A stretch of DNA of 27,249 nucleotides from positions 1 through 27,249 of the forward strand of contig JBKJLC010000128.1 in NCBI GenBank assembly GCA_046597055.1. Reading direction: 5' to 3'. This DNA is from Kofleriaceae bacterium. GTDB taxonomy: Bacteria; Myxococcota_A; Polyangia; Haliangiales; Haliangiaceae. The position numbers were made by a program, and so were the translations under genes. Under the pieces are notes generated by a model. The model was not told the origin of the DNA. It searched no databases and was given only the letters and a program-made list of their open reading frames with translations. Shown in pieces: positions 231 through 27,249 of this stretch. Positions within the stretch are counted from its first letter, which is position 1; each line of letters starts with the position of its first letter.

Positions 231-246
231 CTAGAACATGTTCTAG
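231..246. promoter_or_regulatory. KstR-like TetR operator, site 1 (CTAGAACATGTTCTAG, perfect 16-bp palindrome)
   Basis: Core 232-245 TAGAACATGTTCTA fits TnnAACnnGTTnnA. Ends just upstream of the ATG at 254 and is preceded by a -35-like TGGACA at 219-224. Confidence 0.85.
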
Positions 247-3395: not shown

Positions 3396-3405
3396 GGAGA
3401 CACGC

Positions 3406-4581: not shown

Positions 4582-4616
4582 CCGCGAGCCCCGGCCCGAG
4601 CACGACAGGAGCGGCC

Positions 4617-7882: not shown

Positions 7883-8920
7883 CTACGAGGCGGGCGACGG
7901 CGCGGTCGGCGACGGTGACGACGGTGCGGGCGCGGGCGCGGGCCCGGCGGCGGTCGCGAGCTCGACGACCTCGGGGGGCGCGGCGGGCTCGCCGTAGAAC
8001 TGCTTGGACCAGCGCCGGAACAGGCCGATCGGTCCGTCGCCATCGACCAGGACCGGCGGGTTCACGTAGATCTTGTTCTCCCAGATCGGGATGTCCTGCT
8101 CGAGCTGGCGGCCGATCTCGCGCTGGAAGGCGGCGCCGACCGTGCTGGTCACGCCCTCGTTCACCATCTTGCGGACGCTGAAGGCGAACCGCAGCTCGAC
8201 GTAGTCCTCGTCGATGGTGGTGGCCGAGCTCACCAGCAGGGTCTCGACCAGGCCCCGGAACCGGCTGGTGGTGAAGCCGAAGCCGTGGGCGTACACCTCG
8301 ACCTCGCCCTTGACCTTGCCCTGCGGCGTCTTCATCGCCGTGGTCGAGGTCGCGTGGAGGATGTGGCCCAGCGTCTCGGCCCTGGTCGCCGGCATCTCCT
8401 GGGTACCGTGCAGGTACAGGAAGTGGGCCGAGTCCACCGAGTTCTCCGCCATCTCCTGGTTGTGCGTGCGGATTTTCCAGCTGCGCTTCTCGTACGTCGT
8501 CCAGTCGGCGTGGCCGAACTCGGGGAGCACCGGGACCTCCCAGCTCGGCGCGGCGCCGTCGGGGTGGAACCAGGTCATCAGCAGGCCGTTGACCTCGCGC
8601 AGCGGCCAGGTGCCGAGCTGCGCGCGCGGCGGGATCTTCTTGCCGTACGGGATCTCGCGGCACGCGCCGGTGCCGTCGAACTTCCAGGCGTGGAACGGGC
8701 ACTCGATGCAGTCGCCCTTGACCTTGCCGCCGTGCCCGAGGTGGGCGCCGAGGTGAGGACAGTGGGCGTCGAGGAGACGGGCCTCACCGCCCTCGGTGCG
8801 GAACAGGACCAGGTCTCGTCCGAAGTAGCGCAGCGGGCGCACGGCGCCGGGCTGGAGCTCGTCGGCGTAAGCAACCTGGAACCAACCGGTCGGGTAGCGC
8901 GGCATCGGGAAGCGGCTCAT
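7883..8920 (-). CDS. Rieske [2Fe-2S] non-heme iron oxygenase, KshA / Neverland (cholesterol 7-desaturase) family
   Basis: RBS AGGAG before ATG 8920. Rieske ligands CPH...CPFH, mononuclear Fe motif ENSVDSAHFLYLH, C-terminal QDIPIWENK...DGPIGLFRRWSKQFY. Confidence 0.88.
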   Translation of the reverse strand: MSRFPMPRYPTGWFQVAYADELQPGAVRPLRYFGRDLVLFRTEGGEARLLDAHCPHLGAHLGHGGKVKGDCIECPFHAWKFDGTGACREIPYGKKIPPRAQLGTWPLREVNGLLMTWFHPDGAAPSWEVPVLPEFGHADWTTYEKRSWKIRTHNQEMAENSVDSAHFLYLHGTQEMPATRAETLGHILHATSTTAMKTPQGKVKGEVEVYAHGFGFTTSRFRGLVETLLVSSATTIDEDYVELRFAFSVRKMVNEGVTSTVGAAFQREIGRQLEQDIPIWENKIYVNPPVLVDGDGPIGLFRRWSKQFYGEPAAPPEVVELATAAGPAPAPAPSSPSPTAPSPAS

Positions 8921-8943: not shown

Positions 8944-8957
8944 TGAAACATGTTTCA
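8944..8957. promoter_or_regulatory. KstR-like operator, site 2 (TGAAACATGTTTCA)
   Basis: Perfect 14-bp palindrome fitting TnnAACnnGTTnnA in the 70-bp divergent gap between the Rieske gene and the acyltransferase operon. Confidence 0.85.
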
Positions 8958-8990: not shown

Positions 8991-9884
8991 ATGTCGACCT
9001 CGACCAAGGAAGCCGGCCGCCTGCTGCAGTGGCTGCACCGGAGAGCGGGCGCGCCCGTCGCTGCCAGCGACCCGGGCGAGCACGATCCGATCGCGGTCGC
9101 GCAGGTCCTGCGCTTCGCCAGCAAGTTCTTCGGCCCGCGCCGCTACTTCGATCTCGACGCGCAGGGAATGGAACATGTTCCACCTACGCCCACGATGATC
9201 GTCTCGAACCACTCGGGCGGCACCAGCATCCCCGACGTGTGGGGCTTCGGCTACACCTGGTACACCCACTTCGGGCTCGAGCGCGTCATCCACCCGATGG
9301 CCCACGAGATCATCCTGTCGACCCGGATCACCGCGCGCTTCTTCGGCCGCCTGGGCGTGCTGCGCGCCGGGCGCGGCGTCGCCGCCGAGGTGCTGACCCG
9401 CTGGAAGCGCGACCTGCTGGTGATGCCCGGCGGCGATGTCGACACCTGGCGGCCCTACCGGGATCGCTACAAGGTCCAGTTCGGCGGCCGCACCGGCTAC
9501 GCGCGCTCGGCGATCACCGCCGGCGTGCCGATCGTGCCGGTCGCCAACGCGGGCGCCCACGAGACCCTGATGGTGCTCAGCGACGGCCGCGCGCTGGCCC
9601 GCCGGCTCCACCTGCACGAGCTGACCCGCGCCAACGTGTTTCCGATCCACCTGTCGCTGCCGTGGGGCCTGACCATCGGTCCGTGGCCGCACCTGCCGAT
9701 CCCCGGCAGGTTCCGCTACCGGTTCGGCAAGCCGATCGCGCCGCCGCCGCTGGCGCCGGGCGAGCTGCCGTCCGACCAGGCGGTGCGCGATCTCGACGCG
9801 ACCGTGCGGGCCGCGGTCCAGGGCCTGCTCGACGGGCTGCGCCTCGAGTCCGACGACGCGGCCAGCGCGCGGAGGGCGGCGTGA
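8991..9884 (+). CDS. Lysophospholipid acyltransferase family protein (PlsC/DGAT2-like)
   Basis: VSNHSGGTSIPD (catalytic H...D), LLVMPGGDVD, GYARSAITAGVPIVPV, RYRFGKPI. Confidence 0.85.
   Translation: MSTSTKEAGRLLQWLHRRAGAPVAASDPGEHDPIAVAQVLRFASKFFGPRRYFDLDAQGMEHVPPTPTMIVSNHSGGTSIPDVWGFGYTWYTHFGLERVIHPMAHEIILSTRITARFFGRLGVLRAGRGVAAEVLTRWKRDLLVMPGGDVDTWRPYRDRYKVQFGGRTGYARSAITAGVPIVPVANAGAHETLMVLSDGRALARRLHLHELTRANVFPIHLSLPWGLTIGPWPHLPIPGRFRYRFGKPIAPPPLAPGELPSDQAVRDLDATVRAAVQGLLDGLRLESDDAASARRAA
9169..9182. promoter_or_regulatory. KstR-like operator, site 3 (TGGAACATGTTCCA), intragenic
   Basis: Perfect 14-bp palindrome encoded as ATG GAA CAT GTT CCA, four consecutive A/T-ending codons in a GC3-rich gene. 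Confidence 0.7.
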
Positions 9885-10639
9885 CCGCGCCCGCGTATCC
9901 GCCTGGCCGGCAGCTGCTGGCCGGCAAGACCGTGCTCATCACGGCCGCGGCCGGCACCGGCATCGGCTTCGCGGTGGCCAAGCGCGCGGTCGAGGAGGGC
10001 GCGCGCGTGATGATCAGCGACGTCCACGAGCGCCGGCTCGGCGAGGCGGCCAAGGAGCTGGGCGTGCCGTTCGCGCGCTGTAACGTCGGGGTCGAGGCCG
10101 ACGTCCAGGCGCTGTGGGAAGCCGCCGGCCGCGAGCTGGGTGGGGTCGACGTGCTGGTCAACAACGCCGGCCTCGGCGCCACCGCGCCGCTGGTGGAGAT
10201 GACCGACGAGCAATGGAGCGCGGTCCTCGACGTCAGCCTCACCGGCACGTTCCGCATGATGCGGGCCGGGCTGCGCCACATGATGCCGCGCAAGACCGGC
10301 GTGATCGTCAACAACGCCTCGGTGCTGGCGTGGCGGGCCCAGGCCGGCCAGTCGGCCTACGCGGCGGCCAAGGCCGGCGTCATGGCGCTCACCCGCTGTG
10401 CCGCAGTCGAGGCGGCCCCGGCCGGCGTGCGCGTCAACGCAGTGGCGCCCAGCCTCGCGATGCACAAGCACCTGGTGAAGGTGACCAGCCAGGAGCTGCT
10501 CGACGAGCTGACCTCGCGCGAGCTGTTCGGCCGCGGCGCCGAGCCGTGGGAGGTCGCCAACGTGATCGTGTTCCTGGCCAGCGACTACGCGTCGTACATG
10601 ACCGGCGAGGTCGTGTCAGTGTCGAGCCAGCACCCGTAG
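9881..10639 (+). CDS. ipdF: Short-chain dehydrogenase, IpdF (Rv3559c)-like HIP-CoA pathway reductase
   Basis: Diagnostic TAAAGTGIG N-terminus, ISDVHERRL, NNASVLAWRAQAGQSAYAAAK (YxxxK), C-terminal GEVVSVSSQHP. GTGA overlap. Confidence 0.88.
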   Translation: MTAPAYPPGRQLLAGKTVLITAAAGTGIGFAVAKRAVEEGARVMISDVHERRLGEAAKELGVPFARCNVGVEADVQALWEAAGRELGGVDVLVNNAGLGATAPLVEMTDEQWSAVLDVSLTGTFRMMRAGLRHMMPRKTGVIVNNASVLAWRAQAGQSAYAAAKAGVMALTRCAAVEAAPAGVRVNAVAPSLAMHKHLVKVTSQELLDELTSRELFGRGAEPWEVANVIVFLASDYASYMTGEVVSVSSQHP

Positions 10640-10673: not shown

Positions 10674-11138
10674 ATGATCGACAAGACCGCGGTCGGCGCC
10701 GTCGGTGAGCCGTTCGAGCTCATCGTCGAGCGCGGCAAGATCGGCGAGCTGGCCCGCGCGATCGGCGCGGTGCACGCCGACCACCTGGCGACACCGGCGA
10801 TCCCGCCGCCGACCTTCTTCACCACGATGTTCCACTGGGAGCACCACCGCGCCGGCGCCAACCCGTGGCACCGGGTCGGCATGAGCGAGGAGCGCGGCAT
10901 GCACGCCGAGCAGGAGTACGTGTTTCACGGTCCGCCGCCGGCGGCCGGCACCCGGCTGACCGCGACCTCGCGCATCGCCGAGATCACCGAGAAGCAGGGC
11001 CAGCGTGGCGGCGTGCTGACCTTCGCCGTGATGGTGACCGAGCTGCGCGACGAGACCGGCCGGCTGGTCGCCGAGGCCCGGATGACCGGGGTCGAGACCG
11101 AGCGGGCGCCCGACGCCGCGCCCGAGGCGACTCGATGA
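10674..11138 (+). CDS. MaoC-like dehydratase N-terminal-type (HadA-like) hotdog protein
   Basis: VERGKIGELARAIG, PPTF, MHAEQEYVFHGPPPAAGTRL. RBS AGGAG. Confidence 0.8.
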   Translation: MIDKTAVGAVGEPFELIVERGKIGELARAIGAVHADHLATPAIPPPTFFTTMFHWEHHRAGANPWHRVGMSEERGMHAEQEYVFHGPPPAAGTRLTATSRIAEITEKQGQRGGVLTFAVMVTELRDETGRLVAEARMTGVETERAPDAAPEATR

Positions 11139-11551
11139 CGCTGGCCCCCCCGCCGCCGCGGGTGTTCGGGCCGATCACGCGCACCGACGTCGTGCGCTAC
11201 CAGGGCGCGTCGGGCGATCTCAACCCGGTCCACCACGACGAGCCGTTCGCGCGCGGCGCCGGCTATCCGGCCCCGCTGGTGGTCGGCATGTTGCCGGCCG
11301 GCGCGATGTTCGCGTGGGCCAGCGACTGGCTGGGGCCGGCCAACGTGCGGCACGTCCGGTGCCGGTGGCAGGCGCCGGTGTTCCCCGGCGACGTCCTGAC
11401 CACGACCGGCAGGGTCGCCCGCGACTACCTCGAAGCCGGCGAGCGCCGGATCGATCTCGAGCTGGCGTGCACGAAGCAGGACGGCGCGATCGCGGTACGA
11501 GGCTGGGCGACCTTCGTCGCCCCGGGTGTTCCAGATCAGGAGATGCGATGA
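11135..11551 (+). CDS. MaoC-family (R)-enoyl-CoA hydratase/dehydratase, catalytic (HadB-like) subunit
   Basis: Hydratase motif [18 protein letters not shown] (D-x4-H) and PVFPGD. ATGA overlap with the preceding hotdog gene. Confidence 0.85.
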
Positions 11552-12570
11552 AGCTCGGCTTGATGGTCGGATATTCGGGCGCCAAGGTCGCCCTCGACAT
11601 GGCGACGATCCTCGAGGCCGAGCGCCTCGGCTACGACTCGGTGTGGACCGCCGAGTCGTGGGGCTCCGATGCGGTCAGCCCGCTGGCGTGGATCGGCGCG
11701 CAGACCACGAAGATCCGGCTCGGCACCGCGATCATGCAGCTGCCGGGGCGGTCGCCGGCCAACGCGGCGATGACCGCGATGACGCTCGACGGGCTCAGCG
11801 GCGAGCGCTTCATCCTCGGCCTCGGCACCAGCGGGCCCCAGGTGGTCGAGGGCTGGCACGGCGTGGCCTGGCACAAGCCGCTGACCTGGCTGCGCGAGTA
11901 CATCACCATCGTGAAGGCGATCCTGGCCCGCGAGGCGCCGCTGGCGTTCCAGGGCGAGCGCTACCGCATCCCGTACGACGGCCCCAACTCGGCCGGCCTC
12001 GGCAAGTCGCTCAAGAGCATGGTCCACGGCCGCCGCGACATCCCGATCTACTCGGGCGCGATGGCGCCGCTCGGCCAGGAGCTGTGCGGCGAGCTGTGCG
12101 ACGGCATCCTGCTCACGTGCATGAACCCGGAGCGGCCCGAGGTGATCCTCGACCGGGTCGCCGCCGGTCGCGCCAAGGTCGGCAAGACCCTCGACGGCTT
12201 CGAGGTCGCGCCGACGGTGGCGGTCGCGGTCGGGCCCGACGTCGAGGCGCTGCGCCGACCGTTCAAGGAGCAGCTCGCCCTGTACATCGGCGGCATGGGC
12301 GCGAAGGAGAAGAACTTCTACCGCGAGTACCTGAGCCGGGTCGGCTACGAGGCCGAGTGCGCGCGCATCCTGGAGCTGTTCATGGCCGGCCAGCGCAAGG
12401 AGGCGGTCGCCGCGGTGAGCGACGCCATGGTCGACACGCTGTACTTGATCGGCCCGCCCGCGCGGATCAAGGAGCGGTTCGCGGCGTGGAAGGACGCGGG
12501 CGTGACCACGATGATCATCGGCAGTCACCAGCCCGAGGCGATCCGGCTGATGGCGGAGCTCGCGCTGTGA
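11548..12570 (+). CDS. LLM-class F420-dependent oxidoreductase, Rv3520c family
   Basis: [59 protein letters not shown]. Confidence 0.88.
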
Positions 12571-13166
12571 AGATCGGCCTGGTTGGCGGCACCGGCAAGG
12601 AAGGACGCGGCCTGGCGGCGCGCTGGGCCCGGGCCGGTCACGAGATCGTGATCGGCTCGCGCGACCCGGCGCGCGGCGACAACGCGGCCGCGGCCGACGC
12701 CGAGGTGGTGGTGCTGTGCGTACCCTACCCCGCCCACGCCACGACGGTGCGCGAGCTGGCGCCCCGGCTCGAGGGCAAGATCGTCATCGATCTGGTGGTG
12801 CCGCTGGTCCCGCCGCGCGTGACCAGGGTGGTCATCCCCGAGGGCGGCGCGGCCGCGCTCGAGGCCCAGCGCCTGGCGCCAGGCGCCCGGGTGGTCGGCG
12901 CGCTGCACCACGTCAGCTCGGTCCATCTCGGCGACCTCGAGCACCGCATGACCGGCGACGTCCTGATCTGCGGCGATGACCCGGCCGCCAAGGACACGGT
13001 GATCGCGCTGATCGCCGACCTCGGCATGCGCGGCCTCGACGCCGGGCCGCTCGCCAACGTGGTCGCGCTCGAGGCGATGACGCCGGTGCTGCTGTACCTC
13101 AACCGGCGCTACCAGCGGACCGGGCTCGGGCTGCGCATCGAGGGTCTGCCCGACGAGGCCACATGA
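12567..13166 (+). CDS. npdG: NADPH-dependent F420 reductase (F420H2:NADP+ oxidoreductase)
   Basis: [49 protein letters not shown]...[18 protein letters not shown] overlap. Confidence 0.88.
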
Positions 13167-13951
13167 TCGCGTGCGCGCCCCGGCTCGAGGCGATCGCCCT
13201 GCCCGGCCTGCCGATCGTCGGGCCCGGCGACGATCTCGCCGCGCTGATCGCGGCCGGCCTGGCGCGCGCCGCGCTCACCCTCGACGACGGCGACGTCCTG
13301 GTGGTGGCGTCGAAGCTGGTGTCGCGCGCCGAGGGTCAGTTCGTCGACCTCGGGACGATCGAGCCCTCGGCGCGTGCCCACGAGCTGGCCGCGCGCACCG
13401 GCCACGATCCGCGTCACGTCGAGCTGGTCCTGCGCGAGTCGGTCGCGCTGTCGCGCACCGGGCCCGGCGTGCTGATCGTCCGGCACCGGCTCGGCTTCGT
13501 GGTCGCCAACGCCGGGATCGACCTGTCGAACGCGGCGCCGCCGCGCGCGCTGGCCGCGGGCCGCCCCGGTCCCTGGGCCCTGACCCTGCCGCGCGCCCCC
13601 GACGCCACCGCGCAGCGGCTGTGGGCGGCGCTCGTCCCCGGGCGGCCGATCGGCATCGTCATCAGCGACTCGTTCGGACGGCCGTTCCGGCTCGGCACCG
13701 TCGGCACCGCGATCGGCGCGGCCGGGGTGCCCGCGCTGTGGGATCAGCGCGGCCGGCGCGACCTGTTCGAGCGGCCGCTCGAGCGCACCGTCACCGCGCT
13801 CGCCGATCAGGTCGCCGCGGTCGCCGACCTGGTGGCCGGTCAGGCCGCCGAGGCGCGCGGCGTGGTGCTCGTGCGCGGCCTGCGCTTCGCGGCGACCGAC
13901 GGCGGCGCCGCGGCGCTGATCCGTCCCGCGACCGAGGACATGTACGCATGA
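13163..13951 (+). CDS. cofE: Coenzyme F420-0:L-glutamate ligase (stand-alone, no nitroreductase domain)
   Basis: [56 protein letters not shown]. Confidence 0.92.
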
Positions 13952-14886
13952 CGGCCCCTCGCATCCCGCGGGTGGTCGCGCTGTCGGGCGGGATCGGCGG
14001 CGCCAAGCTCGCCGCCGGGCTGGCCGCGGCCCTGCCCGCCGGCGCGCTCACGGTCATCGTGAACACCGGCGACGACTTCGTGCACTGGGGCCTCCGGATC
14101 AGCCCCGATCTCGACACGGTGATGTACACGCTGGCCGGGCTCGCGCACCGCGAGCAGGGCTGGGGCCTCGCCGGCGAGACCTTCGCCGCGCTCGCGATGG
14201 TCGAGCGCCTCGGCGGCCCGGCCTGGTTCCGGCTCGGCGACCAGGACCTCGCGACGCACCTGATGCGCACGACCCGGCTGGCGGCCGGCGCCAGCTTGAC
14301 CGCGGTCACCGCCGAGCTGTGCGAGAGCCTGGGGGTCACCACCCGCATCCTGCCGATGTGCGACTCGCCGCGGCCGACGCTGCTCGACACCGACGACGGC
14401 ACGCTCGAGTTCCAGGACTGGCTGGTGCGCCGCCGCGGCGCGCCCATGGTGACCCGGGTGTGGTCGGCCGGGCCCGCCACGCCGACGCCGGCGGTACTGG
14501 CCGCGATCGCCGAAGCCGACGTCGTGGTCATCGGGCCGTCCAACCCCTACGTCTCGATCGATCCGATCCTCAATCTCGACGGCATGGGCGCCGCGCTCGC
14601 ACGTCGGCCGGTGGTCGCGGTCAGCCCGATCGTCGCCGGGCGTGCGATCAAGGGGCCGCTCGCCGCGATGATCCCGCGGCTGGCCGGTCGCGCCCCGAGC
14701 GCGGCGGCGATCGCCGATCACTACCGCGGGCTGATCACCGGGCTGGTGCTGGAGCACGGCGACGAGGCCCCCGCCGACCTGCGGGTGCTGACGACCGCGA
14801 CCGTCATGGCCAACGACGACGACCGGATCCGGCTCGCGCGCGAGGTGCTCGGGTTCGCCGGCGTCGCGACCGAGGTTCGGCCGTGA
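13948..14886 (+). CDS. cofD: 2-phospho-L-lactate/phosphoenolpyruvate transferase (CofD/FbiA)
   Basis: [17 protein letters not shown]...[57 protein letters not shown]. Confidence 0.93.
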
Positions 14887-15575
14887 TCGGCGGCACCTGG
14901 GCGCTGGTCCCGACCCGGTCGTTCCGGACCGGCAAGTCGCGCCTGACCGAACGCCGCCTCGGGCGTGATCGCGCGGCGATCGCCCGCGCGCTGTTCGAGG
15001 GCACCGCGGCCGTGCTGCGCCGACACGGCGGCCTCGCCGGCGTTCTGGTCGCCACCGACGGCGATGACGTCGTCACTGCCGCCCGCGGTCACGGCGCCGA
15101 GATCCTGCGCGACCCGGCCCGGCCCGTGGCAAGCCACACGACCCTGCTGGCGTCGATCATCGACCGCGGGCTGGCCGAGCTGGCCAGACGCGGCGCGGCG
15201 GCGGTGGTGGTGGTGATGGCCGACCTGCCGAGGCTCGCGGGCAGCGACCTCGACGTGCTGCTGAGCGCGCTGGCCGGCGCCGAGCTGGTGCTCGCACCCG
15301 ACCGGGCCGCGCTGGGGACCAACGCGCTCGCGATCCGCTTGCCGACGCCGATCGCGACCGCCTTTGGCAACCGCGACAGCTACCCGCGCCACCTGGCGAC
15401 CGGGCGCCGGGCCGGCGTGCGCACCGCGGTGGTCACCACCCCCGGCCTCGCGTTCGATCTCGACCTGCCCGCGGATCTCGAGGAGCTGATCACGGCGACG
15501 GGCGCGGCGCGAGATCGATCCCGCGGTGCAGCGGTGGATCGCGGTCGGTCATCCCCACCGGGAGCGCGAAGGTGA
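14883..15575 (+). CDS. cofC: 2-phospho-L-lactate/phosphoenolpyruvate guanylyltransferase (CofC/FbiD)
   Basis: LVP...[41 protein letters not shown]. The C-terminal tail overlaps the convergent gene by 86 nt. Confidence 0.88.
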
Positions 15576-16902: not shown

Positions 16903-17034
16903 GAGACACTTCCACACGGCGGCCGGCCGTGCTGCCAGGGCATTCGCCGGCAACCGCCGGAAACCGGCGCGGTGCGGCCGGGAGTGGCGCCGGCCGCGCG
17001 CCTGGCCGTCGAATTGCTGAGGGCGTTCCGCCGA

Positions 17035-18438: not shown

Positions 18439-18518
18439 GAGACACTTCCACACGCCGGCGGGTCACGCGGCCAGTGCATTCGCTGGCACTCGCTGGAAAC
18501 CCGCGCGATTATTGAAGA

Positions 18519-18573: not shown

Positions 18574-19851
18574 TCAGTCGTCGATTCTCTGAGCGACACC
18601 GCGCTCGACCGCCGCCGGTCGCCGGAGCGGGATCAGCTGGTCGCCGCCCCGCCGGGCCCGCTGGAAGCGGAACCGGGGATCGCGGGTGAGCGCGTCGTAG
18701 GTGCCGAAGGTGGCGGCCGCATCGGTGAGGCCATCGAGCGGATCGCCGGCCTGGGTCGCGTCCGCCGGCGGCACCAGCTGGTACAGCGTGGTCCGCTGGG
18801 CGGCGATCCGACCGGCGCCGCGCGCGACCCGCCGCAGCTCGGCCGGGGTCGCGACCTGACCGTGGCGGGCGCCCGCCGAGGTCGAGATGCTCTCGTTCAT
18901 CAGGGTGCCGCCGAGGTCGTTGACGCCGCACGCCAGCAGGTGCTCGGCGCCGCGCAGCCCTTCCTTTACCCACGACACCTGCAGGTTGGCGAGGTCGGCG
19001 CCGAGCATCAGGCGCGCGAGCGCGTGCGTGCGCACCACGTCGATGCCGCCCGGGCCCGGCTGCACGCCGGGCTCGGCCGCGAACAGCGGCGCCTCGGTGT
19101 GCACGAACGACAGCGGCACGAACTCGGTGAAGCCGCCGGTGTCGCGCTGGAGATCGCGCAGGCGCTCGAGGTGGCGCAGGCGATCGGCGGGCGACTCGAC
19201 GTGGCCGTACATCATCGTCGCGGTGGTGGGCAGGCCGACCTCGTGGGCGGTGCGGACCACGTCGAGCCACTCGGCGCTGGTGATGCGCCCGGGCGCGATG
19301 CGATCACGGATGGTGTCGTCGAGGATCTCGGCCGAGGTGCCGGGCAGCGAGCCAAGCCCGGCCTCGCGCAGCGCGAGCAGGTACTCGCGGATCGACAGGC
19401 GGGCGCGGTGGGCTCCGTACTGCACCTCCTCCGGCGAGAACGCGTGCAGGTGGAGCTCGGGCGCGGCCCGCTTCACCGCGCGGGTCAGCTCGACGTAGAG
19501 CATGCCGTCGATGCCCGGCGCGAGCCCGGCCTGCAGGCACACCTCGGTGGCGCCGAACGCGCGCGCCTCCAGCGCGCGGCGCACGATCTCGTCGACGCCC
19601 AGGAAGTAGCCCTGGTCGGAGCGAACGCCGCGCGAGAACGCGCAGAACTTGCACTTCTTGATGCAGACGTTGGTGAAGTTGATGTTGCGGTTGACCACGT
19701 AGGTGACGCGATCGCCGGCCTGGCGCGCGCGCAGCTCGTCGGCGGTCGCGCACAGCGCGTGGAGGTCGCCGCCGGTCGCCTCGGTGAGCGGCAACAGCTC
19801 GCGCCACGACGGTGTGTGGCCGGCCAGGCAGGCGGCGAGGATCGCTCTCAC
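18574..19851 (-). CDS. cofH: FO synthase subunit 2 (radical SAM)
   Basis: VTYVVNRNINFTNVCIKKCKFCAF (CxxxCxxC), GATEVCLQAG, HAFSPEE, PGTSAEILDD, TATMMYGHVE, FTEFVPL, QVSWVKEG, NDLGGTLMNESI. GTGA overlap with cofG. Confidence 0.93.
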   Translation of the reverse strand: MRAILAACLAGHTPSWRELLPLTEATGGDLHALCATADELRARQAGDRVTYVVNRNINFTNVCIKKCKFCAFSRGVRSDQGYFLGVDEIVRRALEARAFGATEVCLQAGLAPGIDGMLYVELTRAVKRAAPELHLHAFSPEEVQYGAHRARLSIREYLLALREAGLGSLPGTSAEILDDTIRDRIAPGRITSAEWLDVVRTAHEVGLPTTATMMYGHVESPADRLRHLERLRDLQRDTGGFTEFVPLSFVHTEAPLFAAEPGVQPGPGGIDVVRTHALARLMLGADLANLQVSWVKEGLRGAEHLLACGVNDLGGTLMNESISTSAGARHGQVATPAELRRVARGAGRIAAQRTTLYQLVPPADATQAGDPLDGLTDAAATFGTYDALTRDPRFRFQRARRGGDQLIPLRRPAAVERGVAQRIDD

Positions 19852-20945
19852 GCGCGACCGCCCGGCACCGCCGCCGCGTGCCCGGCGAGGAGCCGCGGCG
19901 CCAGCTCGGGCGCGACGAACGCCGGGCTGCGCCAGCCGTCGTGGATGGGCAGCCGCGGCGCGAGCGTGAAGCCGGCGGCGGCGCAGCTGGCGGCCAGCTG
20001 CTCGAGGTGCGGCCAGGCGTAAGCCAGGTTGATGTAGTCGGGCGTCAGCGGCGAGATGCCGCCGAGGTCGTTGATGCCGGCGGCGAGCAGCGGCGCGAGG
20101 TCGGCCGACAGGTTGGGCGGCGCCTGCACGGTGATGTCCTCGTCGAGCACCAGGCGGGCCAGCGCGATCGCGCGGGCATGCTCGTCCTCGCCTGGCTCGG
20201 GCGCGTCGGCCATGGGGGTCGCGGCGTGCGCGCGGAACCGCTGCACGATCACCTCCTGGATGTGACCGTGGCGCTGGTGCAGCGCGCGGATCGCGAGCAG
20301 CGCGTCGAGGCGCTCGGCCTCGGTCTCGCCGATCCCGATCAGGAGCCCCGACGTGAACGGGATGTGCAGCGCGCCGGCCTCCTCGATCATCGCCAGCCGC
20401 ACCGCTGGTCGCTTGTCGGGCGCGCGGTGATGAGGCTGGCCGCGCTGGCACAGCCGCGCGCTGGTGGTCTCGAGCATCAGCCCGAGGCTGGCGTTGACCG
20501 GCCGCAGCGCCGCCATCTCGTGCTCGGTGAGGATGCCGGCGTTGGTGTGCGGCAGGAGCCCGGCGGCCAGCGCCGCGCCGCACGCCCACACCAGGTACTC
20601 GACCGTGCTGGCGAAGCCCCAGCTCGCGAGCAGGGTCTGGTACGAGGGAAACACCGACTCGGGACGATCGCCCAGGCAGAACAGCGCCTCGGTGCAGCCG
20701 AGCTGACGCGCGCGCGCCAGCGATGCGGTGACCTGGTCGGGCGACATCGTGAGCGCGCCGAGATCCTTGGGCGACCGGCGAAACGCGCAGTAGTCGCACA
20801 CGTCGCGACACAGGTTGGTCAGCGGCAGGAACACCTTGGGCGAGTAGGTGATGCGGCGGCCCCACCCATGATCGCGGCGTTCGCCGGCAGCGGCGACCAG
20901 CTCGGCGGTCGACAGCGCCAGGAACGCGTGGGCCGCGTCGCTCAC
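19848..20945 (-). CDS. cofG: FO synthase subunit 1 (radical SAM)
   Basis: ITYSPKVFLPLTNLCRDVCDYCAF, GCTEALFCLGDRPE, GLLPHTNAG, SLGLMLE, PFTSGLLIGIGET, HIQEVIVQ, QAPPNL, GGISPLTPDYIN. Confidence 0.93.
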   Translation of the reverse strand: MSDAAHAFLALSTAELVAAAGERRDHGWGRRITYSPKVFLPLTNLCRDVCDYCAFRRSPKDLGALTMSPDQVTASLARARQLGCTEALFCLGDRPESVFPSYQTLLASWGFASTVEYLVWACGAALAAGLLPHTNAGILTEHEMAALRPVNASLGLMLETTSARLCQRGQPHHRAPDKRPAVRLAMIEEAGALHIPFTSGLLIGIGETEAERLDALLAIRALHQRHGHIQEVIVQRFRAHAATPMADAPEPGEDEHARAIALARLVLDEDITVQAPPNLSADLAPLLAAGINDLGGISPLTPDYINLAYAWPHLEQLAASCAAAGFTLAPRLPIHDGWRSPAFVAPELAPRLLAGHAAAVPGGRA

Positions 20946-21724
20946 GCGCCACCCGCGGTGGCGGCGGCGTCGAGAAAGGCCGGGCGCTCACCGCCGCCAT
21001 GCACGACCAGCGCGGTGCCGCTGACCCACGCCGCCAGCGGCGAGGCCAGGAACAGGCACGCGCCCGCGACGTCGTCGGGCGTGCCCATGCGCCCGAGCGG
21101 GATGGTGGCGCCGACCGCCGCGATCCCGGCCTCGCTGCCGTAGTGCAGGTGGGCCTGCTCGGTGCGGATCGGACCGGCCACGATCGCGTTCACCCGCACC
21201 TTCGGCGCCCACTCCACCGCGAGCGACTGGGTCAGGTTGATGAGGCCAGCCTTGGCCGCGCCGTACGCGGCGGTCCCCGGCGACGGGCGCAGGCCGCTGA
21301 CGCTGGCGATGTTGAGGATCACGCCCCCCCCGGCCTGGCGCTGCATCACCGCGTTGGCACGCTGGGCCAGCCACAGCGGCGCGATCAGGTTGAGCTGGAT
21401 GATCGACGCCGAGAACCGCGGCGACACCGTGGCCGCGACCACCGGCGGCGAGCCGCCCGCGTTGTTGACCAGCACGTCGAGGTGACCGTGGCGATCCATC
21501 GCCGCCGCGATCACGCGATCGAGCTGCTCGACCTCGCGCACGTCGGCGTCGACGAAGCTGGCCTGACGGCCGCCCGCGGCCGGCAGCTCGGGCGGCGTGG
21601 TGCGTCCACACACGACGACCTCGGCCCCGGCGGCGAGGAAGCGCAGCGCGATCCCGCGCCCGATGCCACGACCACCGCCGGTGATCACCACCACCTTCCC
21701 ACTCAGGTCGAGACCGTCGGCCAT
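20942..21724 (-). CDS. Short-chain dehydrogenase, Rv3549c-like (C/D-ring cluster)
   Basis: RBS AAGGAG. TGGGRGIG, NNAGGSP, SVSGLRPSPGTAAYGAAKAG, AVEWAPKVRVN, VHGGGERP. Divergent from echA20 as in M. tuberculosis. Confidence 0.85.
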   Translation of the reverse strand: MADGLDLSGKVVVITGGGRGIGRGIALRFLAAGAEVVVCGRTTPPELPAAGGRQASFVDADVREVEQLDRVIAAAMDRHGHLDVLVNNAGGSPPVVAATVSPRFSASIIQLNLIAPLWLAQRANAVMQRQAGGGVILNIASVSGLRPSPGTAAYGAAKAGLINLTQSLAVEWAPKVRVNAIVAGPIRTEQAHLHYGSEAGIAAVGATIPLGRMGTPDDVAGACLFLASPLAAWVSGTALVVHGGGERPAFLDAAATAGGA

Positions 21725-21753
21725 GGAAGCTCCTTCGCGCTGGACACCTAAAG

Positions 21754-21767
21754 TGGAACATGTTCTA
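21754..21767. promoter_or_regulatory. KstR-like operator, site 4 (TGGAACATGTTCTA)
   Basis: Fits TnnAACnnGTTnnA with one break in dyad symmetry, in the 59-bp divergent gap. TGGACA at 21741-21746 has the same spacing as at site 1. Confidence 0.85.
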
Positions 21768-21783
21768 GTCCGACCCGCAAGCG

Positions 21784-22551
21784 ATGAGCACGGGTCCAAG
21801 CATCCGCCACGCCGTCGACGACCGCGGCATCGCCGAGGTGGTCGTCGCCCGCCCTCCGGTCAACGCGCTGCGCATCGCCGACTGGCAAGGCCTCGCCGAT
21901 ACCGTCCGCGCGCTCGGCATCGATCCGCGCGTGCGCGTCGTCGTGCTCGCGGCCGAGGGCCGCGGCTACAACGCCGGCGTCGACATCAAGGAGATCCACG
22001 GCGCGGCCGACACCCACGCCGCGCTGGTCGCGGTCAACCGGGCCTGCGCGGCCGCGTTCGCCGCGGTCTACGAGTGCGAGGTCCCGGTGATCGCCGCGGT
22101 CCACGGCTTCTGCCTCGGCGGCGGCATCGGCCTGGTCGGCAACGCCGACGTCGTGATCGCATCCGACGACGCCAGCTTCGGGCTGCCCGAGGTCGATCGC
22201 GGCGCGCTCGGCGCGGCCACCCACCTGGCCCGCCTGGTCCCGCAGCACCTCATGCGCGCGCTGGTCTACACCGGCCGCCGCATCGCGGCGACCGAGCTGC
22301 ACCGGTACGGCTCGGTGCTCGAGGTGGTGCCGCGCGACCGCCTGCTGGCCGCGGCCCGCGCGGTCGCCGCCGAGATCGCGGCCAAGAGCCCGATCGCGAT
22401 CCGCGCCGCCAAGCAGTCGCTCAACGGCATCGACCCGATCGATGTCCGTCGCAGCTACCGGTACGAGCAGGGCTTCACCTACGAGCTCACGCTCGCCGGC
22501 GTCGGCGCCGAGCAGCGCGCCGCGTTCGCCGAGAAGCGGACCGACAAGTGA
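21784..22551 (+). CDS. echA20: Crotonase-family D-ring hydrolase, EchA20-like
   Basis: PPVNAL, EGRGYNAGVDIKE, AVYECEVPVIAAVHGFCLGGGIGLVGNAD, FGLPEVDRGALGAATHLARLVPQH, SYRYEQGFTYEL. Confidence 0.9.
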   Translation: MSTGPSIRHAVDDRGIAEVVVARPPVNALRIADWQGLADTVRALGIDPRVRVVVLAAEGRGYNAGVDIKEIHGAADTHAALVAVNRACAAAFAAVYECEVPVIAAVHGFCLGGGIGLVGNADVVIASDDASFGLPEVDRGALGAATHLARLVPQHLMRALVYTGRRIAATELHRYGSVLEVVPRDRLLAAARAVAAEIAAKSPIAIRAAKQSLNGIDPIDVRRSYRYEQGFTYELTLAGVGAEQRAAFAEKRTDK

Positions 22552-22594
22552 TGGACGGGGCTGATCGGAACGGCATGCGTTCGGCCCAGGTCAG

Positions 22595-22752
22595 CCCGGT
22601 TCGCCCTGAGCGCAGCGCGAAGCGCGGAATCGAAGGGTGCCCTTCCTCCGGTGTGGCGGGCGTCCTTCGACGCCGCCCGTCGCTTCGCGCCGGGCTGCGC
22701 TCAGGACGAACGGGGGAGACGGGTCGCACCGGTACTTCGGGTCAGTCTCCCC
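22595..22752. repeat. Long imperfect palindromic repeat element between echA20 and ipdA
   Basis: GTTCGCCCTGAGCGCAGC (22599-22616) pairs with GCTGCGCTCAGGACGAAC (22694-22711) with 1 mismatch. Nested GCGAAGCG/CGCTTCGC and TCGAAGG/CCTTCGA. Adjacent GGGGAGAC/GTCTCCCC stem (22713-22752). Confidence 0.85.
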
Positions 22753-22795
22753 AGGGACGACGGGCCATGACGCGGACTCTCTGCGCAGGACATCC

Positions 22796-23617
22796 ATGAA
22801 GGACAAGCGGATCCCGGCCGAGGAGGTCGTGGCCGAGCTGCGGCCGGGCATGACGATCGGGATCGGCGGCTGGGGCTCGCGCCGCAAGCCGATGGCGCTG
22901 GTGCGCGCGATCCTGCGCTCCGACCTGAAGGACCTCACGATCGTTACCTACGGCGGCCCCGATGTCGGGCTGCTGTGCGCGGCCGGCAAGGTGCGGCGCC
23001 TGATCACCGGCTTCGTGTCGCTCGACTCGATCGCGCTCGATCCCTGCTATCGCGCGGCGCGGCAGCGCGGTGACCTCGAGGTGGTCGAGTACGACGAGGG
23101 CATGCTGCAGTGGGGGCTGTACGCGGCCGCGCTGCGGCTGCCGTTCCTGCCGACCCGGGCCGGCCTCGGCAGCGACGTGCTGACGCTGTGCCCCGAGCTG
23201 CGCACGGTCCGCTCGCCCTACCGCGACGCGCACGGCGACGGCGAGGAGCTGGTCGCGATGCCCGCGATCGAGCTCGACGTCGCGCTGTGTCACCTCAACC
23301 GCGCCGACATGGCCGGCAACGCCCAGTTCCTCGGGCCCGACCTCTACTTCGACGACCTGTATCTCGGCGCCGCGAAGCGCCGCTTCGTCTCGGTCGAGCG
23401 GGTGGTCGCCACCGAGGAGCTGCTCGCGGCCGGCTCGGTGCACACGCTGCGCATCCATCGCGGCATGGTCGACGGCGTGATCGAGGCGCCCCGCGGCGCC
23501 GCCTTCACCGAGTGCACGCCCGACTACGGCCGCGACGAGGAGCTGCAGGCCCGCTACGCCGCGGCGGCCGCCGATCCAGCCGCGTGGAACGCGTTCTACC
23601 AGGAGTACGTCGCGTGA
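22796..23617 (+). CDS. ipdA: C-ring-cleaving hydrolase subunit alpha (CoA-transferase fold)
   Basis: GMTIGIGGWGSRRKPMALVRAILRS, YGGPDVGLLC, GFVSLDS, EYDEGM, PFLPTRAGLGSDV, GPDLYFDDL. Confidence 0.92.
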   Translation: MKDKRIPAEEVVAELRPGMTIGIGGWGSRRKPMALVRAILRSDLKDLTIVTYGGPDVGLLCAAGKVRRLITGFVSLDSIALDPCYRAARQRGDLEVVEYDEGMLQWGLYAAALRLPFLPTRAGLGSDVLTLCPELRTVRSPYRDAHGDGEELVAMPAIELDVALCHLNRADMAGNAQFLGPDLYFDDLYLGAAKRRFVSVERVVATEELLAAGSVHTLRIHRGMVDGVIEAPRGAAFTECTPDYGRDEELQARYAAAAADPAAWNAFYQEYVA

Positions 23618-24351
23618 CGCTGCCCGCTGCCCGTCACGAGATCTGCGCGGTCGCGCTGGCCGAGACCTTCCGCGGCGACGGCGAGATCCTGGCCAGCCCG
23701 ATGGGCGTCCTGCCCGGCATCGCCGCCCGCCTGGCCCGCGCCACGTTCGCGCCCGACCTGCTGCTGTCCGACGGGGTCGCGTCGCTGGTCAGCGCCACCG
23801 GCGCGGTCGAGGGCTGGCTGCCGTATCGCACCGTGTTCGACGTGGTGTGGTCGGGGCGCCGCCACGTGATCATGGGCGCGTCGCAGATCGACCGCCACGG
23901 CAACCAGAACATCGCGTGCATCGGCGACCCGCGGAAGCCCAAGTCCCAGCTCCTCGGCATGCGCGGCGCACCCGGCAACACGATCAACCACACCACCAGC
24001 TACTGGGTTCCGGTCCACTCGCGCCGGGTGTTCGTGCCCAGGGTCGACGTGGTGACCGGCGTCGGCTACGACCGCGCCGCCGCGCTCGGCCCGCGCGCCG
24101 CGCGCTTCCATGAGATCCGCCGGGTGGTCACTGATCTGGCGGTGCTCGACTTCGGCACCGTCGATCGCACGATGCGGCTGGTCTCGCTGCATCCCGGGGT
24201 GGCGCTCGCCGACGTGGTCGAGAAGACCGGCTTCCCGCTCGGCTTCGTCGAGCCGGTGCCGACCACCCGTCTGCCGACCGCCGACGAGCTCGATCTGCTG
24301 CGCCGGGTGATCGACCCGCGCGGCGCGGGCCAGAAGGAGGTCGCGGCCTGA
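23614..24351 (+). CDS. ipdB: C-ring-cleaving hydrolase subunit beta
   Basis: EICAVA...FRGDGEILASPM, EGWLPYRTVF, GRRHVIMGASQIDRHGNQN, GMRGAPGNTINHTTSYW. GTGA overlap. Confidence 0.92.
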   Translation: MTLPAARHEICAVALAETFRGDGEILASPMGVLPGIAARLARATFAPDLLLSDGVASLVSATGAVEGWLPYRTVFDVVWSGRRHVIMGASQIDRHGNQNIACIGDPRKPKSQLLGMRGAPGNTINHTTSYWVPVHSRRVFVPRVDVVTGVGYDRAAALGPRAARFHEIRRVVTDLAVLDFGTVDRTMRLVSLHPGVALADVVEKTGFPLGFVEPVPTTRLPTADELDLLRRVIDPRGAGQKEVAA

Positions 24352-25442
24352 TGTCGGCGCTCCACACCCGCATCTGCGATCTGTTCGGCATCCGCTATCC
24401 GATCATCCAGACCGGCATGGGCTGGGTGTCGGGCCCGATCCTCACCGCCGCGACCAGCGCGGCCGGCGGCATGGGCATCCTCGGCGCGGTCACCATGACC
24501 CTCCCCGAGATGGAGGCCGCGATCGCGACGGTCAAGGCCGCGACCGATCGCCCGTTCGGCGTCAACCTGCGCCCCGACCAGGCCGACCTCGACGCGCGCA
24601 TCGCGATCCTGGTGCGCGAGCGGGTCAAGCTCGCCAGCTTCGCCGGCCCACCCGGCAAGGACGTCATCACCCGGCTGCGCACCGCCGGCATCCTGACCAT
24701 GCCCACGGTCGGCGCCCGGCGCCATGCCGAGAAGATGGCCGGGCTCGGCGTCGACGCGATCATCGCCCAGGGTGGCGAGGGCGGCGGCCACACCGGCGAG
24801 GTGCCGACCTCGCTCTTGCTCCCCGACGTGTGCGACGCGGTCAAGATCCCGGTGCTCGGCGCGGGCGGCTTCCACGACGGCCGCGGGCTGATCGCGGCGC
24901 TCGCGTTCGGCGCCAGCGGCATCGCCATGGGCACCCGGTTCCTGCTCACCCGCGAGAGCACGGTGCCGGGCGCGGTGAAGGACATCTATCTCAAGACCAA
25001 CGTGATGGGCACGGTGGTCACCCGCCACATCGACGGCGCACCCCAGCGCGTGATCCGCACCAGCGTGATCGACGGGCTCGAGCGGGCCGGCTCGCTGCGC
25101 CGGCTCTGGCGCGCGCTCGGCAACGCGTTCCGCTTTCGCCGGGCCACCGGCGGCACCCGGCTCGGCCTCTTGCGCGAGGCGCGGGCGATGAAGCAGCGCC
25201 AGGAGCTGCCGCTGGCCCAGCTGCTGATGGCGGCCAACGCACCGATGATGACCCGCGCCACCATGGTCGAGGGTCGGCCCGACGTCGGCATCCTGCCGAC
25301 CGGCCAGGTGGTCGGCGTGGTCGACGAGCTGCCGACGGTCGCCGAGCTGATCGCGCGCATCGTCGCCGACGCCGAGGCCACCCTGGCCCGGCTCCACCCC
25401 GACGCGGCCGCGCCGGCGGCGCGCCAGAGCGGGGCGGCGTGA
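24351..25442 (+). CDS. ipdC: Nitronate monooxygenase/FabK-family flavoprotein, IpdC (Rv3553)-like
   Basis: YPIIQTGMGWV, TDRPFGVNLR, AQGGEGGGHTG, AGGFHDGRGL, AMGTRFLLT, LMAANAPM, GQVVG. TGATG overlap with ipdB. Confidence 0.88.
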   Translation: MSALHTRICDLFGIRYPIIQTGMGWVSGPILTAATSAAGGMGILGAVTMTLPEMEAAIATVKAATDRPFGVNLRPDQADLDARIAILVRERVKLASFAGPPGKDVITRLRTAGILTMPTVGARRHAEKMAGLGVDAIIAQGGEGGGHTGEVPTSLLLPDVCDAVKIPVLGAGGFHDGRGLIAALAFGASGIAMGTRFLLTRESTVPGAVKDIYLKTNVMGTVVTRHIDGAPQRVIRTSVIDGLERAGSLRRLWRALGNAFRFRRATGGTRLGLLREARAMKQRQELPLAQLLMAANAPMMTRATMVEGRPDVGILPTGQVVGVVDELPTVAELIARIVADAEATLARLHPDAAAPAARQSGAA

Positions 25443-26314
25443 CCGAGCCGACCGCACCCGCGCCCGCGCCCGAGCTCGAGACCGACCTCGTCCTCACCGA
25501 GCGCCGGGGTCCGGTCGCGATCGTGACGATCAACCGCCCGCGCTACCGCAACGCGCAGAACGCGGCGATGACCTTCGCGCTCGACGCCGCGTTTGGCGCG
25601 GCGGTTGCCGACGACGCGGTCCACGTCATCATCCTGGCCGGCGCCGGCGATCACTTCTCGGCCGGCCACGACATCGGCACGCCCGGCCGCGACATCCACC
25701 AGGACTTCGCCCGGGTCGCGACCCAGTGGTGGCCGCACCAGAACAAGGCCGGCGCCGAGGCGATGTTCGTGCGCGAGGCCGAGCTCTACCTCGGCATGTG
25801 CCGGCGCTGGCGTGAGCTGCCCAAGCCGACCATCGCGATGGTGCAGGGCGCCTGCGTCGCCGGCGGCCTGATGCTGGCGTGGGTGTGCGACCTCATCATC
25901 GCCGCCGATGACGCGTTCTTCGCCGATCCGGTCCTGCGCATGGGCATCCCTGGCGTCGAGTACTTCGCGCATCCGTTCGCGATGAACCCGCGGCTGGCCA
26001 AGGAGTTCCTGTTCCTCGGCGATCGGATGCCGGCCGAGCGCGCCGCGCAGATCGGGATGATCAACCGGGTGGTGCCGCGCGCGAGCCTGCTCGCCGACAC
26101 CCTCGCGATCGCCGACCGGATCGCGGCGATGCCGCGGTTCGGCCTGGCCCTGGCCAAGAAGGCGATCAACCAGGCCGAGGACCGTATGGGCCTGCGCGAC
26201 GTGATGGACGCGACCTACGCGCTCCATCATCTCGCCCACGCGCACAACACGCTGACGTCGCCGGATCACCTCGCCGGCCAGGACGCGAAGTCGATGGCCA
26301 AGGGGCTGAAGTAG
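25439..26314 (+). CDS. Enoyl-CoA hydratase, EchA13-like
   Basis: NRPRYRNAQN, HFSAGHDIGTPGRD, YLGMCRRWRELPKPTIAMVQGACVAGGLMLAWVCD, DPVLRMGIPGVEYFAHP. Confidence 0.85.
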   Translation: MTEPTAPAPAPELETDLVLTERRGPVAIVTINRPRYRNAQNAAMTFALDAAFGAAVADDAVHVIILAGAGDHFSAGHDIGTPGRDIHQDFARVATQWWPHQNKAGAEAMFVREAELYLGMCRRWRELPKPTIAMVQGACVAGGLMLAWVCDLIIAADDAFFADPVLRMGIPGVEYFAHPFAMNPRLAKEFLFLGDRMPAERAAQIGMINRVVPRASLLADTLAIADRIAAMPRFGLALAKKAINQAEDRMGLRDVMDATYALHHLAHAHNTLTSPDHLAGQDAKSMAKGLK

Positions 26315-27249
26315 TGGAGCTGAGCTACTCGGACGCCGAGGAGGCGTTCCGGGCCGAGGCGCGCGCCTGGCTCCGCGCCCACGTGCCGCGCGAGCTGCCG
26401 CCGTCGGGCAGCAAGGACGGCTTCGCCGCGCACGTCGCGTGGGAGCGCGAGCTCCACGCCGCCGGTTGGTCGGTGGTGGCCTGGCCACGCGCGTTCGGCG
26501 GCCGCGACGCCTCGATCATCGAGTGGCTGATCTTCGAGGAAGAGTACTACCTCGCCGGCGCGCCGCCCCGGGTCACCCAGAACGGGATCTTCCTGCTGGC
26601 GCCGTCGCTGTTCGAGTACGGCACCCCCGAGCAGCAGCAGCGCATCCTGCCGGCGATGGCCGCCGCCGACGTGCTGTGGGCCCAGGGCTGGTCCGAGCCC
26701 GGCGCCGGATCGGATCTCGCGGCGGTGACCAGCACGGCGGTGCGCGTCAACGGTGGCTGGCGCCTGCACGGGCAGAAGACCTGGAGCACGCGGGCGTCGT
26801 TCTGCCACGCGATGCACGGGCTGTTCAGGACCGATCCGTCGGCGCCGCGGCACAAGGGCCTCACGTACTTCCTGGTGCCGCTCGATGCGCCGGGCGTGCG
26901 GGTGAATGGCTTCCGGCGGCTCGACGGCGATGAGGACTTCGCCGAGATCTTCTTCGACGACGTGTTCGTCGCCGATCACGACGTGGTCGGCCCGGTCAAC
27001 CAGGGCTGGAAGGTCGCGATGTCGACCACCGGGTCGGAGCGCGGGCTGACGCTGCGCAGCCCGGGCCGGTTCCTGGCGTCGGCGGGCCGGCTGGTCGAGC
27101 TGTACCGGCGGGTGCGGGCGCCCTCAGGATCTCGCACATCTTTCCCGGTGGCCCTGAGCCAGGGCGAGCGCAAGCGAGCCCGCCGTCGAAGGGCAGTCCG
27201 TCGAAGATCACGTGCGGCACCTTGGCGCTCTGCCCTTCGACACGGCGCC
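26314..27249 (+). CDS. fadE31: Acyl-CoA dehydrogenase, FadE31-like (partial; homology appears to stop near 27120; frame stays open to window end)
   Basis: Manual translation from GTG 26314: ...EWLIFEEEYYLAGAPPRVTQNGIFLLAPSL...WAQGWSEPGAGSDLA...GQKTWSTRA...HKGLTYF...AMSTTGSERGLTLRSPGRFLASAGRLVELYRR. Absent from the ORF track because it has no stop in the window. Confidence 0.85.
   Translation, partial: MELSYSDAEEAFRAEARAWLRAHVPRELPPSGSKDGFAAHVAWERELHAAGWSVVAWPRAFGGRDASIIEWLIFEEEYYLAGAPPRVTQNGIFLLAPSLFEYGTPEQQQRILPAMAAADVLWAQGWSEPGAGSDLAAVTSTAVRVNGGWRLHGQKTWSTRASFCHAMHGLFRTDPSAPRHKGLTYFLVPLDAPGVRVNGFRRLDGDEDFAEIFFDDVFVADHDVVGPVNQGWKVAMSTTGSERGLTLRSPGRFLASAGRLVELYRRVRAPSGSRTSFPVALSQGERKRARRRRAVRRRSRAAPWRSALRHGA
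27145..27249. repeat. Second copy of the palindromic repeat family, inside the fadE31 frame
   Basis: CCGGTGGCCCTGAGC resembles CCGGTTCGCCCTGAGC at 22596. TCGAAGGGCAG pairs with CTGCCCTTCGA. Truncated by the window end. Confidence 0.75.

Follow-up and report, generated by a model that had tools for sequence, protein, structure and literature searches.

Why should genes for the breakdown of the steroid C and D rings carry a KstR box at a place where mycobacteria have a box for KstR2? The question is raised by a 27,249-nucleotide stretch from a Kofleriaceae bacterium of the phylum Myxococcota (contig JBKJLC010000128.1; hereafter the window), in which an SDR gene is divergent from echA20-ipdA-ipdB-ipdC. 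In the literature, sterol catabolism is presented as being under two repressors (PMC3068626, PMC7807495): KstR, with the operator consensus TnnAACnnGTTnnA (PMC1995591), and KstR2, with the consensus AnCAAGnnCTTGnT (PMC3068626), whose effector is HIP-CoA (PMC5380842). For the aerobic pathway, Actinobacteria and Proteobacteria are the sole phyla given (PMC4810484). The initial annotation had assigned the corresponding M. tuberculosis genes to the KstR2 regulon, in agreement with the published binding of KstR2 to the Rv3549c/Rv3550 gap (PMC3068626), and had proposed for the window either a regulatory rewiring or an ancestral state in which one repressor and one signal serve the whole route.

The divergent arrangement is borne out by gene identity. 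The products on both sides of the gap are 52–62% identical to those of mycobacterial-type loci, which were fetched via the published KstR2 site, with genes named by order and the repressor confirmed against PDB KstR2 (E 1e-100) (Table 1). IpdA matches the IpdAB structures 6CO6/6CON at 1e-97 to 1e-101, and the echA13/scdN-like gene is 58–67% identical to genes of Streptomyces, Burkholderia and Novosphingobium C/D clusters. Each of the 11 HIP-pathway enzymes queried, a set that excludes fadE32, fadE33 and aspB, has a clear best match in the genome at 52–65%; SDR, echA20, ipdA, ipdB, ipdC, ipdF and fadE31 lie in the window, the Rv3548c, fadE30 and fadD3 equivalents on contig C1, and fadA6 on contig C117. 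The end of C117 holds the rest of fadE31 in frame, followed by a fadE32-like gene and fadA6, and shares with the window end 117 bases of a dispersed repeat. The two contigs are thus likely to join at fadE31; because the join passes through the repeat, it is likely rather than proven. This palindromic repeat (window 27133–27249 and G000:C117:33509–33818) has more than 100 BLAST hits in the genome and leaves the fadE31 frame open for about 100 codons. Upper-pathway gene names are inferred from family and gene order: KshA, KstD, HsaA-D, the side-chain P450 and the ligases match at family level plus operon order only. Mycobacterial-type ChsH1/ChsH2 have no match in the genome and Ltp2 has weak matches only, so the side-chain set differs from the mycobacterial one.

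Table 1. Positions of the features discussed; coordinates refer to the window unless a contig or locus is named.
Feature	Position	Strand	Remarks
Perfect KstR-type box	232..245	.	22 bp upstream of side-chain operon
Predicted side-chain operon	254..5666	+	double ChsH2-C/DUF35 protein, two thiolase-like genes, acyl-CoA dehydrogenase pair
KshA-like Rieske oxygenase	7883..8920	-	PF19298 + PF00355
KstR-type box, kshA-like gene versus acyltransferase-ipdF-F420 operon	8944..8957	.	consensus match
Acyltransferase-family gene	8991..9884	+	heads operon; PF01553
TnnAACnnGTTnnA match inside acyltransferase gene	9169..9182	.	consensus match
ipdF	9881..10639	+	NF005880 above cut-off; 61% identity
Two MaoC/hot-dog genes	10674..11551	+	PF13452, PF01575
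F420-dependent LLM oxidoreductase, Rv3520c family	11548..12570	+	TIGR03559 362 bits vs 335
npdG, cofE, cofD, cofC (F420 reduction/synthesis)	12567..15575	+	TIGR01915, TIGR01916, TIGR01819, TIGR03552, all above cut-off
cofH	18574..19794	-	start approximate; TIGR03551 above cut-off
cofG (FO synthase subunit)	19848..20945	-	TIGR03550 above cut-off; overlaps SDR stop
SDR, Rv3549c type	20942..21724	-	NF005893 382 bits vs cut-off 255; 55% to mycobacterial-type gene
-35-like hexamer TGGACA	21741..21746	+	conserved bases in 40 aligned loci
KstR-type 14-bp palindrome TGGAACATGTTCTA	21754..21767	.	mid-gap; first base 30 bp from both divergent starts
echA20, ring C/D crotonase	21784..22551	+	NF005925 389 bits vs 260; 62% identity
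ipdA	22796..23617	+	PF01144; 62% identity; PDB 6CO6/6CON
TnnAACnnGTTnnA match in last ipdA codons	23585..23598	.	follows peptide W-N-A-F-Y
ipdB	23614..24351	+	52% identity
ipdC	24351..25442	+	PF03060; 53% identity
Second crotonase, echA13/scdN-like (name inferred)	25439..26314	+	NF006140 above cut-off
fadE31, 5' part	26314..27249	+	53% identity; enters dispersed repeat at contig end
KstR-like TetR repressor	contig C1, 10076-10732		own box at C1:9994, 82 bp upstream
TetR_C_11 gene (group 2)	L379:10147-10746	-	site at L379:10800; also L367, L369, L373, L382

Between the start codons of the SDR gene (ATG, minus strand, 21724) and of echA20 (21784) lies a gap of 59 bp (21725–21783). The palindrome in its middle, TGGAACATGTTCTA, conforms to the KstR consensus TnnAACnnGTTnnA, as the initial annotation had read it. 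The window holds five matches to this consensus against 0.02 expected, a number reached in 0 of 100 shuffles; the match at the end of ipdA is present in 4 of 6 same-genus relatives, gone from the 4 more distant ones, and probably incidental. The KstR2 pattern AnCAAGnnCTTGnT is not matched with 0–1 mismatch at any position of the window, nor within the gap when two mismatches are allowed, and the claim that the gap lacks a KstR2 site is thereby upheld. Over the whole window, two mismatches yield 11 matches, an excess over the 1.74 expected, of which one overlaps the KstR box at 232 and ten lie within called genes. Upstream of the box in the gap, a -35-like element is conserved in 40 aligned loci (T at -13 in 82%, G at -11 in 80%). 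Because this T[TG]GAC element stands 13 bases ahead of the box on the echA20 side only, the arrangement points to an operator that overlies the spacer and the -10 region of the echA20 promoter. The hexamer TCTAGT (21764–21769), 17 bp past TGGACA and overlapping the box, would be a weak -10 candidate; a promoter scan of the gap gave no sigma-70 site under the rule of the scan.

The protein that would bind this palindrome is encoded on contig C1. TetR_C_20 occurs in one of 22 scanned TetRs (23 TetR genes were found in the genome), namely the C1 protein, whose best PDB match, over the full length, is M. tuberculosis KstR at E 2e-19, with the next family at 2e-8. When its model, a single-sequence prediction with a mean pLDDT of 67, is compared by fold, each of the 10 best matches is a KstR, and its recognition helix VALGTLY is of the actinomycete KstR type, where KstR2 has ILSGSLY. 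The C1 repressor is about 30% identical to mycobacterial KstR and scores 109 bits on NF033703, the NCBIfam model of KstR, well under the cut-off of 280. This cut-off is exceeded in 0 of 80 echA20-positive genomes, and the KstR-like proteins of Myxococcota therefore form a separate subfamily. The alignment places Leu at the position of KstR Arg158 and retains Trp164, both of which we take to be effector-binding residues in KstR; the Arg158 position is kept in none of 15 aligned rows from the phylum. The nearest relatives of the C1 repressor (72–86% identity) come from Kofleriaceae, Myxococcales or Deltaproteobacteria MAGs and then from Polyangiaceae, which indicates a host within Myxococcota and not an actinomycete. 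In a quick tree of KstR, a single clade (SH-aLRT 98), separate from actinomycete KstR, takes in 30 of the 31 rows that belong to the phylum, which argues against a recent import of the C1 repressor from mycobacteria. The box in the repressor's own promoter is retained at six related loci (L031, L032, L040, L041, L045 and L049). Cluster look-ups of 20 distant KstR-like proteins gave three named ones, from Acidimicrobiales, Marmoricola and Actinomycetota.

An orthologue of KstR2 was not found in this genome (8.4 Mb, 72% G+C), where tblastn returned HTH-only or 23–30% matches; completeness of the assembly is 94% and contamination 7.6%, so a single gene can be missing. Two TetRs with weak TetR_C_24 scores were discarded as KstR2 candidates, the one on C17 being FadR-like and neither match full-length. 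A profile built from 4 KstR2 sequences and run on 80 of 119 echA20-positive genomes, all MAGs, gave 4 matches at E 1e-14 or better, none of them in the 13 closest genomes (this one and 12 relatives). Since KstR2 of Streptomyces and Nonomuraea still shares 45–50% identity with the query type, a true orthologue would be expected to show up; in these MAGs KstR2 is nevertheless 'not found' rather than 'absent'. The three exact AnCAAGnnCTTGnT matches genome-wide all lie within unrelated coding sequence. One genome of the phylum, G237, encodes a KstR2-like TetR (5e-36) and has a KstR2-type box two genes away from it; this box adjoins a P450 gene and an amidohydrolase-like gene, not the ipd genes. 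The same genome (L229, which is G237:C11, and L264) has no KstR-like match, and its C/D genes branch next to those of proteobacteria.

Which other genes the repressor might control was read from a position weight matrix derived from 52 sites of related loci, the window's own included; a tighter pattern likewise comes from these sites. Scores above 24 bits occur 18 times in 8.4 Mb, 16 of them intergenic. Boxes head kstR and kstD-fadD3, the ACAD-fadE30-flavin reductase unit and Rv3548c, SDR/echA20 and kshA/ipdF, so that the equivalents of all three KstR2 promoters are KstR-boxed. They are likewise found ahead of genes for acyl-CoA ligases, an SCP2 protein and a GMC oxidase, ahead of a P450 gene that stands with hsaA-C-D-E-G-F-like genes, and ahead of another kshA-like gene and a yrbE-mce operon. 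Side-chain, ring A/B, ring C/D, uptake and F420 genes, as predicted, are thus all preceded by a box. The boxed ABC-yrbE-yrbE-ABC-mce-mce operon lies directly behind kstR (G000:C1:10952–16256), is retained in close relatives and is a candidate sterol importer. Strong boxes without steroid-labelled genes were seen at G000:C70:5330, 11614 and 22445 and at C31:22425, where they precede an SPFH pair, a small gene accompanied by lipoprotein-like and SDR genes, a Dus-family gene and one for an unannotated protein.

Comparison of the intergenic region across relatives extends the picture to much of the phylum. We found echA20 in 13 of 61 relatives and, over the phylum, in 108 of 401 genomes. Loci where echA20 heads its operon, the window among them, are called group 1; other families make up group 2. 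After one of 28 phylum loci, with echA20 inside the operon, had been reassigned to group 2, a box stands just ahead of echA20 in 40 of 40 group-1 loci examined, which come from many families and include the window, and in 0 of 800 shuffles. Gene order differs among these loci and the divergent partner varies (SDR, fadD3, ipdA itself or unrelated genes), and the box remains; outside it, the -35-like element alone is conserved in these 40 promoters. The KstR-like gene is present in 13 of 13 echA20-positive against 4 of 48 echA20-negative relatives and, across the phylum, in 72 of 80 echA20-positive genomes, with no match in the other 8. The distribution of cofG is similar: it occurs in 9 of 13 echA20-positive relatives and in 4 of the 48 others, and among genomes of the same genus in 7 of 8 and 0 of 9, respectively; no test was applied to such co-occurrence counts because kin are not independent. 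Of cofG, cofH, cofD, cofE and the LLM gene, one copy each was found in the genome.

On the basis of these data we consider it probable that one KstR-like repressor controls the whole predicted steroid route. In the mechanism we propose, TGGAACATGTTCTA is the likely operator of the single KstR-like TetR of the genome, which would shut both divergent operons, SDR-cofG-cofH and echA20-ipdA-ipdB-ipdC-echA13-fadE31, the latter likely continuing to fadE32-fadA6, with the repressor dimer presumably lying over the spacer and the -10 from which echA20 would be transcribed. The repressor may then be released by an early steroid-CoA ester, as for mycobacterial KstR; the titles of PDB entries 5CW8 and 5CXI name such esters as KstR ligands. 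Release by an early ester would mean that uptake, side-chain, ring A/B, ring C/D and F420 genes are induced together in one step. The route would have no HIP-CoA checkpoint, provided that the repressor does not sense HIP-CoA as well. F420 synthesis would be tied to the steroid signal.

An alternative concerns the nature of that signal. The repressor might respond also, or instead, to HIP-CoA or to acyl-CoAs in general, so that the roles of KstR and KstR2 are merged in one protein. Its C-terminal pocket region is about 30% like that of mycobacterial KstR, Arg158 is not kept and the Myxococcota KstRs stand as a clade of their own, all of which would favour another ligand; yet the protein agrees with KstR in its fold, its operator and the retained Trp164, a KstR2-type C-terminal domain is lacking, and the regulon begins with P450, kstD and uptake genes, which should need an early signal. 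We regard a wider or different signal as possible but doubtful. A second regulator, KstR2 or another, that also acts on the C/D genes and leaves the KstR box as one layer of control is improbable. MAGs are incomplete and fragmented, and in Tsukamurella a near-KstR box adjoins a KstR2-type box in the SDR/echA20 gap (L311:7123–7138; one core change, 17 bits), an arrangement that may be a relic or dual control and so suggests that the latter may exist; it was seen in none of 80 mycobacterial-type loci or 4 other actinomycetes. Against a second layer, none of the 40 group-1 promoters holds the KstR2 pattern at 0–1 mismatch or the palindrome of group 2 described below at 0–3; neither KstR2 nor the TetR_C_11 regulator of group 2 turned up in near-complete group-1 genomes of 4 and 6 contigs, and the KstR2 profile gave one weak match (8e-18) in 44 group-1 genomes. 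A chance match, or an actinomycete contig misbinned into a myxobacterial genome, could appeal to the contamination estimate but has a negligible probability: the shuffle controls are empty (0 of 100 for the window, 0 of 800 for the group-1 loci), the contig end bears the high-copy repeat of this very genome, and the same genes recur at 81–88% identity in 7 of 16 same-genus genomes. Conservation in relatives rules it out.

A different solution is found in group 2, where the C/D genes have the order ipdA-ipdB-ipdC-echA20 and side-chain operons are marked by KstR boxes. None of 18 group-2 ipdA promoters carries a KstR or a KstR2 box. A palindrome with the core ACGATAC-GTATCGT, derived from the same promoters (L267–L283), is present in 13 of the 18 at 0–1 mismatch and in 16 at 0–3, with none at 0–2 mismatches in 360 shuffles. 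It also stands ahead of fadE30, fadD3 and further acyl-CoA dehydrogenases, and often lies in the spacer between TTTACA and a TATtAT-like -10. TetRs adjoining the group-2 ipd operons were rejected as its regulator, which was traced instead via further copies of the motif: the palindrome recurs 50–81 bp ahead of a conserved TetR_C_11 gene in G198, G207, G281, G242 and G141 (Table 1). A strong match to this protein (E below 1e-70) is found in 33 of 36 group-2 against 0 of 44 group-1 genomes, which hold two weak matches (38%); membership was read from the inspected locus in 20 of the 36 and 42 of the 44 genomes, from the motif in G424 and G121, and from the family code in the rest. The protein is 24% identical to KstR2, has different Pfam domains and has 2FQ4 as its closest structure (E 5e-32); it is likely an analogue of KstR2 that derives from an unrelated protein. 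Two genomes, G237 and G315, lack both the third motif and a strong TetR_C_11 match. In G315 a different TetR is divergent from ipdA (L279:12983–13573), perhaps a fourth wiring.

In five actinomycete records, KstR2-like variants were read by eye in the SDR/echA20 gap (Nonomuraea, two Streptomyces, Nocardia and Tsukamurella), and PMC7807495 assigns the Nocardioides C/D genes to KstR2. With KstR boxes in group 1, a third operator in group 2 and KstR2 in actinomycetes, one gene module would therefore be under three regulators.

How this came about was addressed with quick trees, which carry SH-aLRT values without bootstrap and 8 actinomycete rows without Acidimicrobiia or Thermoleophilia. In a tree of EchA20+IpdA+IpdB (45 rows and 709 columns, after 24 of 69 rows had been excluded as near-duplicates), group 1 falls with actinomycetes and group 2 with proteobacteria (SH-aLRT 100), and a single clade of both groups is rejected (p 0.00014), so modules have moved. 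One history is that the echA20-first module arrived without, or lost, a dedicated repressor and was put under the resident KstR. This derived origin has slightly less than an even chance in our estimation. Beyond the rejection of a joint clade, it is compatible with an actinomycete root (p 0.47) and with a place of group 1 next to Mycobacteriales (p 0.11), neither of which is rejected; group-2 rows are, weakly, basal in the KstR tree, and an origin in Corynebacterineae has been published, termed speculative there (PMC4810484). It fits less well that a branch (SH-aLRT 95 and 89) separates the actinomycete rows from the rest and that group 1 is never nested within actinomycetes in the best trees.

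When the IpdAB tree is rooted on six distant CoA transferases, the lineages with a KstR box become paraphyletic around the actinomycete and group-2 clades, and under that root one repressor would be ancestral. KstR would then have governed the whole route of aerobic steroid degradation first, KstR2 and the TetR_C_11 protein being recruited later and separately as checkpoints. That the two dedicated repressors are unrelated in sequence and domains, and that KstR is common to all three groups, speaks for such an order, but internal branches are short, outgroups are long, SH-aLRT values are 85–92 and the alternatives are not rejected; we hold it to be a rather unlikely history, if a tenable one. 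The remaining probability belongs to more complex scenarios. Of the two options in the initial annotation, the shared single signal is thus supported by sequence, while the trees do not separate rewiring from ancestry (actinomycete root p 0.47, group-1 monophyly p 0.34; neither rejected).

Set beside the KstR (Rv3574/MSMEG_6042) regulon of Mycobacterium and Rhodococcus (PMC1995591), the system described here shares the TnnAACnnGTTnnA operator, the TetR_C_20 fold, the recognition helix, the box in the repressor's own promoter, the position in divergent gaps and the side-chain and ring A/B targets; it differs in a repressor of low identity that scores under the NCBIfam cut-off, in its Myxococcota host and in boxes that also head C/D-ring and F420 synthesis genes. 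With the KstR2 (Rv3557c) regulon (PMC3068626, PMC5380842) it has the target genes in common, including the SDR divergent from echA20-ipdA-ipdB-ipdC and the matches to ipdF, fadE30, fadD3, fadE31, fadA6 and Rv3548c, whereas no KstR2 orthologue was found, the equivalent promoters are without a AnCAAGnnCTTGnT site, and the operons also incorporate an echA13-like gene and cofGH. The proteobacterial HIP clusters (Comamonas scd; Novosphingobium, Burkholderia, Vibrio) contain homologous C/D enzymes, the echA13/scdN-like crotonase included, but have the order ipdA-ipdB-echA13-ipdC-echA20, lack a KstR-type box in front of the cluster in the 3 loci with called genes, and group with group 2 and not with the window.

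We found no account of KstR or of steroid degradation in Myxococcota in a literature search that covered few subscription journals; the term 'Myxo' is absent from PMC5790920, PMC4810484 and bioRxiv 10.64898/2026.09.18.752586, and PMC13277303 names Myxococcota for a sterol reductase only. A third phylum carries the predicted route in many families, with the C/D-ring module apparently wired in two other ways and a candidate regulator and operator named for the group-2 system. The purpose of the HIP-CoA checkpoint becomes testable by comparison, with predicted one-step induction set against two unrelated two-step systems. As to local architecture, the echA20-ipdA gap of the window (22552–22795) is, at 244 bp, longer than that of most relatives, and the steroid cluster is interrupted by an IS200/Y1-type transposase-like gene (6594–7337, minus strand) and by two tandem FG-GAP repeat genes (15490–18453, minus strand).
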